DNA of 13,968 bases from a virus (lineage: Duplodnaviria; Heunggongvirae; Uroviricota; Caudoviricetes): positions 1 through 13,968 of IMG/VR virus record IMGVR_UViG_2537562191_000040; one strand, given 5' to 3'. Shown here one piece after another: positions 6,956 to 13,968 of this stretch; the first letter of the stretch is position 1; the number at the start of each line of letters is the position of its first letter. The notes beneath the pieces are model-generated. The model was given only the letters and a program-made list of their open reading frames with translations. It was not told where the DNA came from and ran no database searches. Made by a program: the position numbers and the translations under genes.

Positions 6956-7506
6956 TTTACCCAACGAACACAGGAAAAAGCGGAGAGCACCTTCGTCTCA
7001 CCACGCTGGAAAGTGTCTGGATTCAGGGGAAACTACGTATGTGGGGGCGCTGGTCGTATATTGGCGGCGGTAAGACGGGAAATATGTTCAACCAGTTGCT
7101 GACCTCTAAAAAGCTGACAAAAACGGCAATTAACGAGGCGCTCCGGAGGATGAAAAAAGCAGGTCTGGACAAACCTAAACTTGAGGCTTTTTTGCGGGAT
7201 ATGATCAACGGCAAGCAAAAAAGCTGGCTGGTGCATTGTACCGATTCAGAGGCGTTAATAATCGACAGGGTTATTGGTGAAGTACTGGCAGGTTATCCCG
7301 GGCTGCTCAATGTTCTGAGTCAGCGTTATGTGGGGCGGGGGATGACTAAGCGCAAAATGGCTGAACTGCTGAATGATGCACATCCGGAATGGAGTTTAAG
7401 AACCTGTGAAAGACGCATTGAGCATTGGCTAAAGGTGGCAGAATTTATTTTGTACAAACCAATGGTTATGGCTTTTGGTATAGAGAAAAAAGTTATTGCT
7501 TTTTGA
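6952..7506 (+). CDS. Putative late-gene antiterminator Q-like protein (184 aa)
   Basis: Assigned mainly from position: just upstream of the tR'-like hairpin, the tRNA genes and the lysis cassette. The start at ATG 6952 is chosen over the ORF-track start at 6832 because of the ATGA overlap with the upstream stop. Confidence 0.5.
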   Translation: MIYPTNTGKSGEHLRLTTLESVWIQGKLRMWGRWSYIGGGKTGNMFNQLLTSKKLTKTAINEALRRMKKAGLDKPKLEAFLRDMINGKQKSWLVHCTDSEALIIDRVIGEVLAGYPGLLNVLSQRYVGRGMTKRKMAELLNDAHPEWSLRTCERRIEHWLKVAEFILYKPMVMAFGIEKKVIAF

Positions 7507-7583
7507 CGTAAAAACTGCTTCAATTCCGGTAAGCTTCGCAAAGCTGTATCGCGAGGCGAACCAAACGCATGAACTTTACCAGA
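7503..7583 (+). promoter_or_regulatory. Putative late promoter (pR'-like) and Q-utilisation region
   Basis: A TTGACG -35-like hexamer overlaps the Q stop (7503-7508). I found no convincing -10. The call rests on position between Q and tR'. Confidence 0.25.
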
Positions 7584-7607
7584 ACCCGCCATTGAGCGGG
7601 TTTTTTA
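7584..7607 (+). terminator. Rho-independent terminator (tR'-like): ACCCGC-CATTGA-GCGGGT followed by TTTTTT
   Basis: GC-rich hairpin plus T-run read from the sequence, about 80 nt downstream of the Q stop and upstream of the tRNAs. Confidence 0.7.
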
Positions 7608-7645
7608 TTGCGGAATTAATTACGGACCGTTATTATTCTGCTCCC

Positions 7646-7721
7646 GGCCCTTTAGCTCAGTGGTGAGAGCGAGCGACTCATAATCGCCAGGTCGCTGGTT
7701 CAAATCCAGCAAGGGCCACCA
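7646..7721 (+). tRNA. ileZ: tRNA with CAU anticodon, most likely tRNA-Ile2 (ileZ-type, lysidine-modified) rather than tRNA-Met
   Basis: Cloverleaf folded by hand: acceptor GGCCCTT/AAGGGCC, D-stem GCTC/GAGC, anticodon loop CTCATAA, T-arm GCTGG-TTCAAAT-CCAGC, encoded CCA. Stx-type phages carry ileZ at this position. Confidence 0.8.
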
Positions 7722-7821
7722 TCACAAACCGCCATTAGCTTATCAGGAAGAGCAGACGACACCATAACAGGGTTGTTGGTGCGGGGGCGGGTCCCCGATG
7801 GCGGTCCATTATCGGTATTCT

Positions 7822-7898
7822 GCGTTGTTAGCTCAGCCGGACAGAGCAATTGCCTTCTAAGCAATCGGTCAGTGGTTCGACTCCACTACAACGCGCCA
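7822..7898 (+). tRNA. tRNA-Arg (anticodon UCU, reads AGA)
   Basis: Cloverleaf folded by hand: acceptor GCGTTGT/ACAACGC, D-stem GCTC/GAGC, anticodon stem ATTGC/GCAAT with loop CTTCTAA, T-arm AGTGG-TTCGACT-CCACT, encoded CCA. Confidence 0.85.
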
Positions 7899-7910
7899 CA
7901 CTTATTTTCC

Positions 7911-7936
7911 AGGCTCGCTTCGGCGGGCCTTTTTTG
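7911..7936 (+). terminator. Rho-independent terminator (8-bp stem AGGCTCGC/GCGGGCCT with one G-U pair, UUCG tetraloop, T5)
   Basis: Read directly from the sequence, immediately 3' of tRNA-Arg. Confidence 0.7.
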
Positions 7937-8067
7937 TATCTGCGCCACGCCCGGCGCATATCAACCACAGAGCCTTTCGGGGGTGAGCTTACGGAGTGGT
8001 CAGTGTGACTTTCTCTGTGGGCAGATCGCTCCCGGGCGTTGGCTCACCCACCCAAAGGAACGTCACG

Positions 8068-8499
8068 ATGTTTGGAATCTTCAAAAAGAAAACCCGCAGA
8101 GCGGCAGCGGAAATTAAAAAGTTTGAGAAACGCGATCTGGCACAGGCGGTGATTAACGCTGCATACCTGGTGGCCTATGCAGATGGTGAATGCGAGGCAT
8201 CCGAGAAAGCGAAGATCGAACAGGTCTTACGTAATCAGCCTGCGTTGTCTGCGTTTACCTCGGAAATTAATGCGATTAGCGCAACTATTATCGGTCAGCT
8301 GGATACCAATTTTAAAATTGGTCGTCGTGCCGCGTTACGCGAGATTGAGGATGTGAAACACGATACGCGTGAAGCGGAAGATGTGCTGGATGTGGCGGTG
8401 GCCATTGCGGAGGCAGACGGCGAAATTGAGCCGGAAGAGCGCAAGGTGCTGGAAGAGATTGCCGGTGTTCTGGGTCTTCGTCTGGAGAATCACCTGTGA
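8068..8499 (+). CDS. TerB-like (tellurite-resistance TerB domain) protein (143 aa)
   Basis: ATG at 8068 with an AAAGGAA Shine-Dalgarno sequence. Repeated AxADGE...E...L elements (AYLVAYADGECEASEKAKIEQVL, VAIAEADGEIEPEERKVLEEIAG) fit the TerB domain. It occupies the position where stxAB lie in Stx phages. Confidence 0.55.
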   Translation: MFGIFKKKTRRAAAEIKKFEKRDLAQAVINAAYLVAYADGECEASEKAKIEQVLRNQPALSAFTSEINAISATIIGQLDTNFKIGRRAALREIEDVKHDTREAEDVLDVAVAIAEADGEIEPEERKVLEEIAGVLGLRLENHL

Positions 8500-8663
8500 C
8501 GGTAAAACTGCGCCTGGCTGTGGCTGCACTCCTGCTGTTTCTGGTGGTGATGGTGGATTTCACCAGCAGAATCATGTCGGTGCTGGCGGATGGGGTGCTG
8601 GTCTGCGGCATTGTGGTATTGCTGTGGCCGGTGATAAAAAGAAACAGCCTGCATAATGCTTGA
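8496..8663 (+). CDS. Possible small membrane protein (55 aa, start GTG overlapping the TerB-like stop; alternative ATG at 8550)
   Basis: Strongly hydrophobic (LAVAALLLFLVVMV ... VLVCGIVVLLWPV). It is below the ORF-track cutoff and the start codon is uncertain. Confidence 0.3.
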   Translation: MTVKLRLAVAALLLFLVVMVDFTSRIMSVLADGVLVCGIVVLLWPVIKRNSLHNA

Positions 8664-8830
8664 TTTTTTTGTTTGCTGTTTATTAAAAACACTTCTGCAT
8701 GGTGAATCCCCCTGTGCGGAGGGGCGATCAGCAACCAGGTATATGGGATAATCGCGGATTCAGGTGCTGATACTGAATTCACCGGGAGGCACCCGGCACC
8801 ATGCAAGAAAAAGAATGTGCATGCAAACAT

Positions 8831-8854
8831 GCCCCTCTCCGGAGGGGCTTTTTT
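8831..8854 (+). terminator. Rho-independent terminator (perfect 7-bp stem GCCCCTC/GAGGGGC, loop TCCG, T6)
   Basis: Read directly from the sequence. It lies in a roughly 400-bp non-coding stretch and has no obvious upstream CDS. Confidence 0.6.
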
Positions 8855-8981
8855 ATGGGTAAAAAATGCCCGAATGGGTTCGGGCAATAGCATGAGATAC
8901 TGATATTGTTGTGTTGTTATCGTGTGGATTTTAACCAGGGTTTATCAGGCTGCGCAACTGCGTGGCCTTTTTTCATTTCTT

Positions 8982-9026
8982 GGGCTGTAGTCCCCGTGTG
9001 TCATTCAGGCTTCCGGACTACAGCCC
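8982..9026. repeat. Inverted repeat with 12-bp perfect arms (GGGCTGTAGTCC ... GGACTACAGCCC) around a 21-nt spacer
   Basis: Read directly from the sequence, about 45 bp upstream of the esterase start. Confidence 0.6.
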
Positions 9027-9069
9027 ACTCCATATCTGATTTAATACACTATCCCGGCCGGGAGGAATA

Positions 9070-10923
9070 ATGACATTTAAACATTATGATGTTGTCAGGG
9101 CGGCGTCGCCGTCAGACCTTGCGGAAAAGCTGACACACAAACTGAAAGAGGGCTGGCAGCCATACGGCGGACCGGTTGCCATTACGCCGTACACACTGAT
9201 GCAGGCGGTGGCTATTGAAGGAGAGCCACAGGTCGGCCCTTCATCTGAGCCGGATTGGTACTACGTCATCGTACTGGCCGGGCAGTCCAATGCCATGGCT
9301 TACGGTGAAGGGCTTCCGCTGCCGGATTCATACGATGCTCCGGATCCGCGCATTAAACAGCTGGCGCGCCGCAGTACAGTGACGCCGGGCGGGGCTGCCT
9401 GCAGATATAACGATATTATTCCGGCTGACCACTGTCTGCATGATGTGCAGGATATGAGTACGCTGAATCATCCGAGGGCTGACCTGAGCAAAGGGCAGTA
9501 CGGCTGTGTCGGCCAGGGTTTACATATTGCCAAAAAACTGCTCCCGTATATCCCGAATAACGCGGGGATCCTGCTGGTACCATGCTGTCGTGGTGGTTCG
9601 GCATTTACCCAGGGCGCGGAGGGGACATTCAGCGAGTCCACGGGGGCCAGTCAGGATTCGGCACGCTGGGGGGTGGGCAAGCCGTTATATCAGGATCTGA
9701 TTTCCCGCACAAAAGCGGCATTGCAGAAAAATCCCAAAAACGTTCTGCTGGCCGTCTGCTGGATGCAGGGTGAGTTTGACATGAGCGCCGCCACCCACGC
9801 ACAGCAACCTGCGCTGTTTACAGCCATGCTGACACAGTTTCGTGCTGACCTCTCCGTGTTTAACGCGCAGTGCCATGGTGGCAGCGCTGCAGATGTGCCG
9901 TGGATTTGTGGTGACACGACGTATTACTGGAAAAATACATACGCTACCCAATACGACACCGTGTACGGCGGGTATAAAAACAGGGAGAGTGAGGGCGTTT
10001 ATTTTGTGCCCTTCATGACAGACGGTAACGGCGTCAATACCGCCACTAACGCGCCGGCAGAAGATCCGGATATTCCGGCATCAGGATATTACGGTGCGGC
10101 ATCGAGAACGAATGGAAACCAGGTATCATCAAACCGCCCGACACATTTCAGTTCATGGGCGCGCAGGAGCATTATTCCGGATCGTCTGGCAACCGCTATT
10201 CTGAACGCAGCCGGGCGCACCTCCGCCTTCATCAGTGGTAAGGCACCGGAAATCAAACCCTCGCCCGGCGGCAACACGCCATCGGGTCCGTCTGCAGATA
10301 CGTCCGTTCGCACAATCTCCCTGCTGCCGGCAGCCGGAGAGGCTGCTGCGCAGGGCTGGAGCATTAAGGATGGCGGAATTCAGTTGTCAGATGGTGTATT
10401 TAAGATCACCAAGCAGAGCAATAAAACCTGGTCCCTGACGCATCCGGTGGATGACGCAATTACCCTGCTGACACAGGGCGGCAGACTGAACTGTAAGTTC
10501 CGCCTGTCAGGCGCACTGACCAACAATCAGTTCGGGCTGGGGATTTATCTGTATACGGATGCTCCCGTTCCTGATGGTGTGGCGATGACGGGTACCGGTA
10601 ATCCGTTCCTGATGTCGTACTTCACTCAGACCACTGACGGCAGAGTGAATCTGATGCATCACAGGAAAGCCGGAAACACGAAGCTGGGGGAGTTCGGCGA
10701 TTACGGTAACGACTGGCAGACGCTGGAGCTGGTGTTCACCGCCGGCAGTGCCACGGTTACTCCGAAACTGAATGGAGTGGCTGGCCCGGCATTCCAGGTT
10801 ATAAAAGACAGTCTGACACTGGGACTGAATGCGCTGACGCTGACGGATGTTACAAAAAATGCAGCGTATGGCGTTGAGATAGAAAGTCTGGTGCTGGAGA
10901 TAAATGCACCGGCATCATCATAA
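9070..10923 (+). CDS. Prophage NanS-p/YjhS-type sialate O-acetylesterase (SGNH/SASA hydrolase, 617 aa)
   Basis: GGAGG Shine-Dalgarno sequence. An N-terminal DUF1737-like region is followed by the SGNH motif [14 protein letters not shown]. The position between the Q/tRNA region and the holin is typical of Stx-type phages. Confidence 0.8.
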
Positions 10924-10997: not shown

Positions 10998-11028
10998 GAG
11001 TTATCAGAGCCATCAGTAGTTAACTGGT
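10998..11028 (+). terminator. Rho-independent terminator (9-bp stem with one G-U pair, 7-nt loop, T6)
   Basis: AGCCATCAG-TAGTTAA-CTGGTGGCT followed by TTTTTT, between the esterase and the holin. Confidence 0.6.
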
Positions 11029-11072
11029 GGCTTTTTTATTGTTGTCAGCTTCCGGATAACGGGAGACGGGGT

Positions 11073-13034: not shown

Positions 13035-13768
13035 ACTCAGGCTGCCAGATCATCGTTTCCGATGGAAGCATAATAAGCTTTTTCTGCTTCTGCCGGAGGA
13101 GTATGGCCCAGCCTTCCCAGCAATCGTCGATTGTTATACCAGTCCACCCACGTTAGTGTGGCCAGTTCCACTTCTGCACGGTTTTTCCAGCTCTTACGGT
13201 GTATTACCTCCGCTTTGTAAAGACCATTGATGCTCTCAGCCATCGCGTTGTCATACGAGTCGCCTGTACTCCCTGTTGATGCCAGTAATCCGGCTTCTTT
13301 TAGTCGCTCCGTATAGGCCAGTGACACATACTGAGAGCCTTTATCGCTGTGATGGATGGTGCCAGACGGACGACGGGCCCACAACGCCTGCTCCAGCGCA
13401 TCCAGCACGAATGTCGTTTCCATAGACGATGAGACCCGCCACCCCACGATGTATCCGGCAAACACATCAATGATAAACGCCACATAGACGAAGCCCTGCC
13501 ATGTGCTGACGTAAGTAAAATCAGCCACCCACAGCTGGTCAGGTCGTTCTGCCACGAACTGACGGTTTACGCGGTCGCCTGCGGCAACGGCTTTCCGGCT
13601 GATGGTCGTACGGACCTTTTTACCCCGGAGAACACCGGCAAGTCCCATAACCGCCATGAGACGTGCCACTGTACATCTGGCCACCCTGATTCCTTCCCGT
13701 AACAACTGACGCCAGACTTTACGCACACCGTACACCTGATGATTTTCATCGTATACGCGCTGTATCAC
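12995..13768 (-). mobile_element. IS3-family (IS629/IS3411-like) element, 3' part only, inverted relative to the copy at 18-813
   Basis: Reverse complement matches positions about 43-813 in every segment I spot-checked, apart from the 1-bp G-run difference. Homology ends at 12995 (terminal ...TGAACC) and at about 13768, beyond which the sequence is unrelated to copy 1. Confidence 0.8.
13037..13768 (-). pseudogene. IS3-family transposase OrfB fragment (frame intact, N-terminal part and orfA missing)
   Basis: ORF-track protein 13037..13783 (248 aa). Only the first few residues are non-IS sequence. It carries the DDE-transposase region ending ...ASIGNDDLAA. Confidence 0.75.
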
Positions 13769-13803
13769 ACACGCCGGGCGCAATCCGTCTGTGCTGGCAC
13801 TGC

Positions 13804-13968
13804 GATAACCAGCTGCGCGATCAGTTCACGGAACGGCTGGAATCAATGGCAACGGATAACTGTACCCGCTGGGTGTTGTCTGTTGTGCGTCGGGATCTCG
13901 GTTTTGATGACAGTCACGTTGTGACAATGCCGGAACTGTGCTGGTGGCTGATTCGTAATGACCTGGCG
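13804..13968 (+). other. Unidentified partial ORF running off the window end (...NQLRDQFTERLESMATDNCTRWVLSVVRRDLGFDDSHVVTMPELCWWLIRNDLA)
   Basis: Open frame with no stop before the window edge, in a different frame from ORF-track entry 13739..13924. Identity unknown. Confidence 0.2.

Follow-up and report, generated by a model that had tools for sequence, protein, structure and literature searches.

A lambdoid prophage stretch that very probably encodes a convergent small-RNA pair, an STnc100-family RNA facing AgvB, next to a conserved hairpin in an esterase leader

Positions 8664–9069 of the 13,968-base window analysed here (all positions given are those of this window) very probably constitute a convergent small-RNA (sRNA) pair module of a lambdoid enterohaemorrhagic Escherichia coli (EHEC) prophage, in which an STnc100-family RNA, encoded on the plus strand, faces the anti-sRNA AgvB on the minus strand. 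The stretch lies in the late operon, with moron genes (TerB-like and DUF3927) on one side and a NanS-p esterase gene on the other. An earlier reading made from the letters of the DNA (the sequence-only reading) had rightly pointed to a candidate sRNA locus, but did not recognise a published, recurrent module of EHEC prophages. Hfq crosslinking in E. coli O157:H7 Sakai was reported by Tree et al., 2014 (PMC4104026), and convergent sRNA genes were described between the moron coding sequence downstream of PR′ and a conserved hypothetical open reading frame (ORF) in prophages Sp3, 4, 5, 9, 10, 11, 15 and 17 (PMC4104026). The architecture of the locus is already published and both RNAs have names, so that the sRNA pair is known; the parts absent from the literature that could be searched are a hairpin in the esterase leader, the overlap between the second of two plus-strand terminators (T1 and T2) and the AgvB promoter, and the breadth and tandem organisation of the STnc100 family.

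A scan with the Rfam covariance models (cmscan) at gathering thresholds gave two matches, which tile the left half of the stretch. The first is to STnc100 (RF02076), covering model positions 1–206 of 206 with 145.8 bits, three times the gathering score of 47 (E = 5.7e-33). The region is 100% identical to the copy in Sakai prophage Sp10 and 96.9% to that in Sp17, the published Northern probe for EcOnc06 is exactly complementary to 8739–8773, and published STnc100 primers for quantitative PCR match 8698–8717 and 8771–8790. EcOnc06, the Sp17 RNA, measured ~177 nt by Northern blotting, its Sp10 homologue being noted as “5′ of ECs1961” (PMC4104026, Table S2), and gave an Hfq peak in all five of the five crosslinking and cDNA analysis (CRAC) data sets (PMC4104026), that copy being the one with 96.9% identity to ours. 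EcOnc27, the neighbour of the anti-sRNA AsxR, was described as 235/247 nt and Hfq-dependent (PMC4104026). Strain EDL933 has 11 STnc100 copies in a published count, one of them verified by Northern blotting, and a published copy is sited 75 nt after stx2B; STnc100 was also described as akin to the Hfq-dependent sRNAs PasD1 and PasD2 of enteropathogenic E. coli (EPEC), found by RIL-seq (ligation and sequencing of interacting RNAs). Transcripts, Hfq binding and anti-GcvB activity are taken here from published experiments on copies 97–100% identical. The family match and the probe match bear out the prediction of a phage small RNA ending at the terminator at 8854 (T1), which is not the orphan that it had been called, since it ends the STnc100-family RNA; the predicted transcript size of 120–150 nt was somewhat low (~160 nt from G8697, ~177 nt by Northern blotting).

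The second match is to AgvB (anti-GcvB anti-sRNA; EcOnc01, RF02702), with 96.5 bits against a gathering score of 56 and 62 of 62 positions identical to the consensus, as well as to both Sakai copies, AgvB1 and AgvB2, in Sp10 and Sp17. AgvB abuts T1 from the opposite strand, starting 62 nt downstream of the plus-strand RNA, and its start, C8922, was taken as the first position of the Rfam model; the 5′ ends of AgvB were mapped by rapid amplification of cDNA ends (PMC4104026). The minus-strand members described in Sakai (EcOnc01a/b, that is AgvB1/2, EcOnc02, that is AsxR, and EcOnc03) are 51–60 nt long and share a 3′ part of ~42 nt, differing in a 5′ part of 14–18 nt (PMC4104026). This ~42-nt part with its Rho-independent terminator, convergent with the plus-strand sRNA between a moron and a conserved ORF, is present in the window. 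Besides the AgvB, AsxR and EcOnc03 types, a fourth 5′ variable region (CGAUUAUAAAAAUGUAUAUCUCAUGCUGUUGCCCGAAC...) was seen on the minus strand of four IMG/VR loci (L183, L158, L159 and L161).

AgvB was described as a 60-nt, Hfq-dependent RNA that carries CACAACA and binds GcvB; it relieves GcvB repression of DppA, with compensatory mutations restoring the effect, and deletion and competition in bovine rectal mucus showed it to be required for competitiveness there (PMC4104026). CACAACA, the consensus of GcvB R1 targets, makes up nt 10–16 of the AgvB RNA of the window. The whole-RNA duplex of AgvB and GcvB has −28.4 kcal/mol compared with −26.4 ± 4.1 kcal/mol in shuffles, 142 of 500 of which pair as well, composition alone favouring pairing; because this energy does not discriminate, we base the link between AgvB and GcvB on the motif and on the identical sequence of the RNA that was tested.

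The absence of a plausible coding sequence from 8664–9069, as the sequence-only reading had claimed, is borne out by four to seven stops in every frame. It is almost out of the question that the stretch codes for protein, through the 193-aa minus-strand ORF 8312–8893 (ECs_1960 in Sakai) or the small ORFs of phage records, even though the former is annotated as a hypothetical protein in Sakai and the records AP005153 and phi315 list small hypothetical ORFs here. Neither the 193-aa ORF nor a 54-aa plus-strand ORF with a TTG start (8906–9070) has a Pfam match, and the former runs antisense across the TerB-like and DUF3927 genes, which have strong family matches. The RefSeq annotation pipeline (PGAP) does not call it in the strain 2571 record inspected, no such ORF stands under the match in any of the 25 records whose copy is 100% identical, homologous regions have non-triplet indels, the annotated ORFs differ in frame and length, and the two RNA families fully explain the sequence.

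The fold of the STnc100-type RNA, with a minimum free energy of −76.4 kcal/mol (z = −4.15), has the closing helix, three internal hairpins, 3′ terminator and covariation of the family. Aligned with one another, seven phage copies differ most in the linker that precedes the terminator; their terminator stem varies in a compensated way, and there is hardly any change in hairpin 1, in the closing helix (GCAUGGUG/CACCAUGC) or in the hairpin CCGGG-AGGCA-CCCGG. Hairpin 1 (CCCCU paired with AGGGG, loop GUGCGG), weak when folded alone (z = −2.0), is the GC hairpin previously placed at about 8711–8727; it is real, with coordinates 2–3 nt off. A covariance model built from the seven copies gave 136 matches in 100 sources, some of them covering the structured core alone (model positions 32–154). 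In 133 distinct copies from Enterobacterales 90.2% of cells are paired, against 40–52% with partners slid. Compensatory changes are seen at 38 of the 43 pairs, and covariation scores 0.327, a value that none of 500 shuffles reached (0.115 in shuffles); the alignment was fitted to the model and leans towards its structure, and we took the slid control as decisive. This covariation goes further than the papers cited, and the identity, structure and conservation of both RNAs are demonstrated by the present comparison. A tRNA-like or ribozyme identity was considered for the core and rejected, as no other Rfam family matches even at E = 0.5.

The A-rich linker between core and T1 is likely to be the Hfq-binding (A-R-N repeats) and target-pairing region, judging from its variability and from the seed UGUGAG of PasD, which sits in the equivalent linker of EPEC E2348/69. 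The 20-mer TCACCGGGAGGCACCCGGCA occurs at at least 120 loci of species-representative genomes across Enterobacterales and is invariant across genera; the near-invariance of the motifs GGUGAAUCCCCC and CACCGGGAGGCACCCGGCA is a hint that the RNA has a conserved partner or activity in addition to pairing through a variable seed. STnc100-like tandem arrays of four to five copies were found in prophages of Pantoea, Citrobacter, Superficieibacter and Enterobacter, among them five copies between NinG/ORF and holin-lysozyme in Pantoea (L083 4087–5953, minus strand) and about five upstream of holin-Rz in Citrobacter braakii (L081 3718–5512, plus strand), with further arrays at L043, L067, L070 and L073. 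As a unit, promoter, core and terminator may form a module intrinsic to phages, which lambdoid prophages from many genera of Enterobacterales carry one to five times in tandem in the interval from Q to holin.

We infer the promoters of both RNAs, and the exact 5′ end of the plus-strand RNA, from comparative evidence alone. The putative −35 box of the STnc100-type gene, TTGATT, overlaps the DUF3927 stop codon, and the homologous locus of E2348/69 has TTGACT at the same place, followed by 18 nt, TAAAAA, 8 nt and GCAUGGUG, at the first G of which the RIL-seq fragments of PasD2 begin; the equivalent start in the window is G8697, giving an RNA of ~160 nt. The copies of Stx phages have weaker −35 boxes (TTGnnn, 16–17 nt, TTAAAA/TTAGAA, or 17–18 nt to TAAAAA/TAGAAA) and TG two bases before TA (TGnTA), as is typical of extended −10 promoters. 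In 46 of 125 family members, the site most like a sigma-70 promoter ends 3–9 nt upstream of the structured core, and in a narrower 6-nt interval (5–10 nt upstream of the core) 30 promoter-like sites were observed compared with 9 in shuffles, which supports an autonomous sRNA gene. On the minus strand, the proposed −35 and spacing of AgvB precede both families of convergent sRNA (128 occurrences, 60 distinct sequences, with −10 TAAAAT or TATTAT, among the fetched loci and the window).

T1 (GCCCCTC-TCCG-GAGGGGC-T6) lies exactly where it had been reported. Its fold has −16.3 kcal/mol (z = −3.9, 0/200 shuffles), and across the STnc100 family its helix is 94% paired, with compensatory changes in 8/8 pairs. 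The most serious rival to our interpretation is that the STnc100 cassette works mainly in cis, as a terminator or insulator of the late operon passed only by Q-modified polymerase, which would protect the lysogen from lysis-gene expression, the RNA being a by-product like lambda 6S or StxS. The element is always in late-gene orientation between Q and the lysis genes, it forms the tandem arrays in Pantoea and C. braakii, four plus-strand terminators stand between Q and holin in the window, and StxS is a precedent for a termination by-product turned regulator (PMC7547250). Termination, however, needs a 3′ hairpin only, yet the 100-nt core is near-invariant and covarying, the copies have their own promoter-like sites just upstream of the core, and the RNAs are Hfq-bound and abundant, PasD forming many RIL-seq chimeras with mRNAs. 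We consider a mainly cis role unlikely, and the cis and trans roles are mutually compatible.

A related proposal, that the plus-strand RNA is the short pR′–tR′ leader transcript of the Q antiterminator, the equivalent of lambda 6S/StxS, appears very improbable. Its orientation is that of the late operon, it ends at a strong terminator, in some phages (L005) it follows Q by a few hundred bases, and its size is similar to that of lambda 6S RNA (194 nt). Nevertheless, two tRNA genes, the terminator 7911–7930 and two protein genes separate Q from the RNA in the window, Stx phages carry the STnc100-type RNA after the stx genes and pR′/StxS directly after Q, and the tandem copies of the family each have a promoter-like site of their own.

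T2 was missed by the sequence-only reading, as were AgvB and its minus-strand terminator. It folds with −14.9 kcal/mol (z = −4.0), its loop and 5′ arm constitute the −35 region of the AgvB promoter, and a near-identical T2-like hairpin is PasD2's own terminator in E2348/69. Of 26 variants, all keep the upper stem unchanged and 12, those carrying the other convergent-sRNA module, have lost the lower GG/CC pairs, which indicates that a module junction runs through T2. In the region 7400–9400 we counted 6 terminator-like sites, compared with 2.3 ± 1.5 in shuffles. The two GC hairpins had been called related, and the 3′ arms of hairpin 1 (8719–8725) and T1 (8842–8848) do share the heptamer GAGGGGC; the resemblance holds only within a subfamily, hairpin 1 being near-invariant while the terminator stem varies. 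A riboswitch-like alternative pairing of hairpin 1 with T1 through this heptamer was discarded, as the resemblance is confined to that subfamily (window, PhiR12, phi315 and a Stx1-converting phage).

Downstream of T2, the leader of the esterase carries an inverted repeat, which had been described with 12-bp arms at 8982–9026; the repeat is real and perfect, with arms of 13 nt. Its fold has −28 kcal/mol (z = −5.8, 0/200 shuffles), and we estimate that chance would produce about 4e-4 perfect inverted repeats of 13 bp, with loops no longer than 60 nt, in 500 bp. Among 26 distinct variants from IMG/VR and phage records, its two helices are 96.6% and 92.1% paired (slid controls ≤42%) and five pairs are changed on both sides, as in only 1 of 500 shuffles, the arms being, for example, GGGCUGCGGUUC/GGACCGUGGCCC in the Shigella phage 7888 type and GGGCUAAGGUUC/GAACCUGUAGCCC in L216; the repeat is conserved as a structure, not as a sequence. 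The non-Watson-Crick cells, read in the plus sense, comprise 34 G.U and 4 A.C, an excess that demonstrates a constraint on the plus-strand RNA. Across related prophages, the hairpins of the stretch are conserved and covarying. In the Sp10 copy (L128), the 3′ arm has four nucleotides, CAGC, duplicated and one T of the loop is replaced by A; the stem predicted for this copy shifts to 11 bp.

The suggestion that the repeat is a structure of the 5′ untranslated region is favoured by these compensatory changes and plus-strand G.U pairs; that of a protein-binding site is not supported. A role at the DNA level, whether as a recombination site, a module junction or a palindromic site at which a regulator of the esterase gene binds, would be in keeping with a perfect 13-bp palindrome-like repeat lying near the boundary of exchangeable modules, some loci of which keep the left arm only, followed by a different gene. 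We find it quite improbable, since the arms change with pairing kept (the five compensatory pairs), unlike sequence-specific half-sites, pairing is kept on the plus strand only (G.U 34 vs A.C 4), common Stx2-type variants have an internal T.T mismatch and no regulator gene is adjacent.

The hairpin is not a terminator, as no T-run follows it on either strand. It sits ~42 nt upstream of the esterase ATG, and no description of it was found in the searchable literature. Expression of nanS-p rises by 1–2.4 log on induction with mitomycin C (PMC10462455), which points to read-through of the terminators and to the hairpin being part of the Q-dependent late transcript. The most economical guess is that it would act as a 5′-proximal stabilising or processing structure. 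The hairpin and T2, which houses the −35 box of AgvB, may form a cis-acting unit on the late mRNA, and cleavage of a duplex between the late transcript and AgvB on induction could free the esterase-lysis mRNA, its new 5′ end being protected by the hairpin; taken jointly, that the hairpin and T2 act as such a unit and that the STnc100 module has a conserved partner or activity is a conjecture that we regard as unlikely. Closer to the start codon, UCCC (9052–9055) can pair with GGGA (9060–9063), and this pairing is kept with loops GGCC, GGAAAG, GGCAAG and GACC; the Shine-Dalgarno sequence and the ATG are invariant in the 26 variants, and the case for sequestration of the former is weak.

We propose that in the lysogen both sRNA genes would be transcribed from their own promoters, the one over the DUF3927 stop codon driving an STnc100-family RNA of ~160–190 nt, which would be bound by Hfq and, by analogy with PasD, most probably act in trans through its variable linker. 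AgvB would mimic GcvB target sites and sequester the R1 seed of this core-genome sRNA, de-repressing amino-acid and peptide transporters such as DppA, an effect determined experimentally for an identical RNA. T1 and T2, together with the terminators 7911–7930 and 11006–11040, would keep unmodified polymerase off the esterase and lysis genes. On induction, Q-modified polymerase would read through them; the resulting late mRNA would be perfectly antisense to AgvB and would have the hairpin, as a stabilising or processing structure, just before the ribosome-binding site of the esterase.

Several observations weigh against this interpretation. The evidence for transcripts comes from identity with Sakai and from family membership, not from this exact window. 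The proposed −10 box TAAAAA lacks the usual final T and was missed by a strict promoter scan, which found no plus-strand promoter at 8600–8700 and none for AgvB. The length of the plus-strand RNA differs between ~160 nt by homology with PasD2, ~177 nt by Northern blotting and 187–247 nt in relatives, and the published EcOnc13 probe covers the proposed promoter (PMC4104026); we give the 5′ end as uncertain because of the Northern sizes (177–247 nt) and the position of this probe, which suggest that the start of some STnc100 copies may lie further upstream, or that longer transcripts may be processed to give them. STnc100 has no known target or phenotype. The lower stem of T2 is missing in about half of the variants, some loci retain only the left arm of the hairpin, with a different downstream gene following, and the roles given here to T2 and to the hairpin are proposals.

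The STnc100 core is very widespread. An E. coli O111:H8 chromosome is 100% identical across the whole window, positions 8600–9100 are 99.0% identical to Sp10 and 98.8% to Sp17 of Sakai, and 2869 of 5426 complete E. coli genomes hold some part of the 501-base query, with up to 14 occurrences per genome. All six related phages compared have STnc100, three of them in a pair with AgvB or AsxR; the remaining three have a longer convergent sRNA that reached no Rfam family at the gathering threshold. Neither sRNA gene is annotated in the strain 2571 RefSeq record, and in the Sakai record ORF ECs_1960 runs over the STnc100 gene. With AgvB, a phage rewires the post-transcriptional network of its host, a textbook example that brings EHEC a growth advantage in bovine rectal mucus, and recognising AgvB and its STnc100 partner matters for correct annotation, the Sakai ORF at this place being spurious. 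Current understanding is unchanged. The features of the locus are collected in Table 1.

Table 1. Features of the sRNA locus and its neighbourhood (window positions; minus-strand features run from higher to lower numbers)
Feature	Position	Strand	Details
STnc100-family sRNA gene (RF02076, EcOnc06 type)	8668–8860	+	Rfam match; RNA body most likely ~8697–8855
Putative sigma-70 promoter of STnc100-type sRNA	8660–8689	+	−35 TTGATT 8660–8665, 18-nt spacer, −10 TAAAAA 8684–8689
Structured core of STnc100-type sRNA	8697–8804	+	Rfam consensus structure
Closing helix of core	8697–8704/8797–8804	+	GCAUGGUG pairs with CACCAUGC
Core hairpins	8709–8713/8720–8724, 8756–8763/8773–8780, 8782–8786/8792–8796	+	
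A-rich linker	8805–8830	+	AAGAAAAAGAAUGUGCAUGCAAACAU; between core and T1, least conserved part of the RNA
T1, intrinsic terminator of STnc100-type sRNA	8831–8854	+	GCCCCUC 8831–8837, UCCG, GAGGGGC 8842–8848, U6 8849–8854
AgvB, anti-GcvB anti-sRNA (EcOnc01, RF02702)	8922→8861	−	Rfam match
AgvB parts	8913→8861	−	CACAACA 8913→8907 in 5′ variable region, hairpin 8901→8889, terminator stem 8886→8867, U-run 8866→8861
Putative AgvB promoter	8957→8928	−	−35 TTGCGC 8957→8952, 18-nt spacer, −10 TAAAAT 8933→8928, start C8922
T2, second intrinsic terminator	8947–8974	+	AGGCUGCGC-AACU-GCGUGGCCU-U6; stem-loop 8947–8968, T6 8969–8974
Conserved RNA stem-loop, esterase leader/late transcript	8981–9027	+	Perfect 13-bp stem 8981–8993/9015–9027, 21-nt loop
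Esterase translation start	9052–9072	+	Shine-Dalgarno GGGAGG 9060–9065, ATG 9070
DUF1737-SASA esterase, NanS-p type (sialate O-acetylesterase)	9070–10923		Then holin, YdfR, lysozyme
Strong intrinsic terminator	11006–11040	+	12-bp stem AGAGCCATCAGT/ACTGGTGGCTTT and T-run; between esterase stop 10923 and likely holin start ~11082
DUF1367, YbcO, DUF1133/Q-type antiterminator	Q ends 7506		Late-region neighbours
tRNA, CAT anticodon	7646–7721		
tRNA-Arg(TCT)	7822–7898		
Terminator	7911–7930	+	
TerB-like moron gene, then DUF3927 moron gene	DUF3927 ends 8663		

Elsewhere in the window, the counterpart of the CAT-anticodon tRNA in a related O157 prophage, which has three tRNAs here, is a tRNA-Ile in RefSeq, and a PADLOC search with the TerB-like and DUF3927 morons gave no match. 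EcOnc11, an Hfq peak of Sakai located ~5 kb downstream of AgvB1, was sought near the end of the window, on the minus strand at 13740–13968, and neither an sRNA-like terminator nor a match was found there. A sub-threshold match to the sok antitoxin RNA (RF01794; 50.2 bits, gathering score 59, E = 6.8e-9) lies at 1757–1881 on the plus strand; hokD is annotated at the equivalent place in a related O157 prophage (L001 2395–2550), and the small ORFs around the match have no Pfam hit. A gene for a C-5 cytosine DNA methyltransferase (2067–3218, plus strand; a type II MTase in PADLOC, E = 2e-98) faces, in convergent orientation, a PF20553 “putative O-methyltransferase” gene (3186–4178, minus strand), beside which lies a GHKL-type ATPase gene (4175–5566, minus strand), PADLOC having no model for these two proteins; the genes at 2067–5566 may be a restriction-like or defence module. 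Genes for IS3-family transposases are found at both ends of the window (132–770 and 13037–13783).

Among known systems, the closest is AgvB of Sakai Sp10/Sp17 (PMC4104026), which has the same 62-nt sequence, strand relation, CACAACA mimic and terminator, and the same neighbours, with a TerB-like moron upstream and the esterase ORF downstream; the RNA itself is no different, and the host here is an O111:H8-type chromosome, not O157:H7. The STnc100 copies of EHEC (EcOnc06, EcOnc27, EcOnc13 and EcOnc05) have the same core helices, terminator and position convergent with an anti-sRNA; compared with the copies of Stx phages, that of the window lacks ~18–20 nt of the variable hairpin region and differs in linker and leader.

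PasD1 and PasD2 of EPEC E2348/69 (Pearl Mizrahi et al., 2021, PMC8550237; Zhu et al., 2026, preprint) share a homologous promoter region and core start. The PasD2 locus is 82% identical to 8530–8725 of the window, similarity stopping at 8725, and PasD2, likewise Hfq-dependent, occupies the same slot between DUF3927 and the esterase gene. Its core has diverged, however, its seed-bearing linker UUCCUUGUGAG is absent from the window, and its terminator is T2-like, the locus lacking both a separate T1 and a convergent anti-sRNA. The arrangement that marks PasD, UUCCUUGUGAG followed directly by a GGCUGCGCA..UGCGCAGCC terminator, is not present in the window, nor are the seed strings of PasA, PasD1 and PasD2, and no similarity was seen between the spacers that separate esterase and holin in the window and in E2348/69, the latter of which contains pasA; the window RNA is a relative of PasD, not a member. 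In E2348/69 (L250 818–1120; NC_011601 741117–741419), the core is joined through the seed-bearing linker to the terminator GGCTGCGCATTGCGCAGCC-T8, and a different, imperfect hairpin, ATGACCTGCCACTGGCAGATGGTCAT, stands in place of the inverted repeat. Relative to the PasD2 layout, the comparison suggests that the cassette of T1 and anti-sRNA is an insertion, or its absence a deletion.

AsxR (RF02703) and EcOnc03, of Stx2 phages and Sp9, have the same slot, promoter and conserved ~42-nt 3′ part with terminator as AgvB; the 5′ variable region of AsxR differs and hence its target sRNA, AsxR acting on FnrS, and the window reaches 43 bits against the AsxR model, whose gathering score is 63. Finally, StxS and lambda 6S RNA are likewise late-region small RNAs of the lysogen that end at terminators ignored by Q-modified polymerase, but they start at pR′ directly after Q, whereas the RNA of the window lies beyond tRNAs and morons and seemingly has its own promoter.

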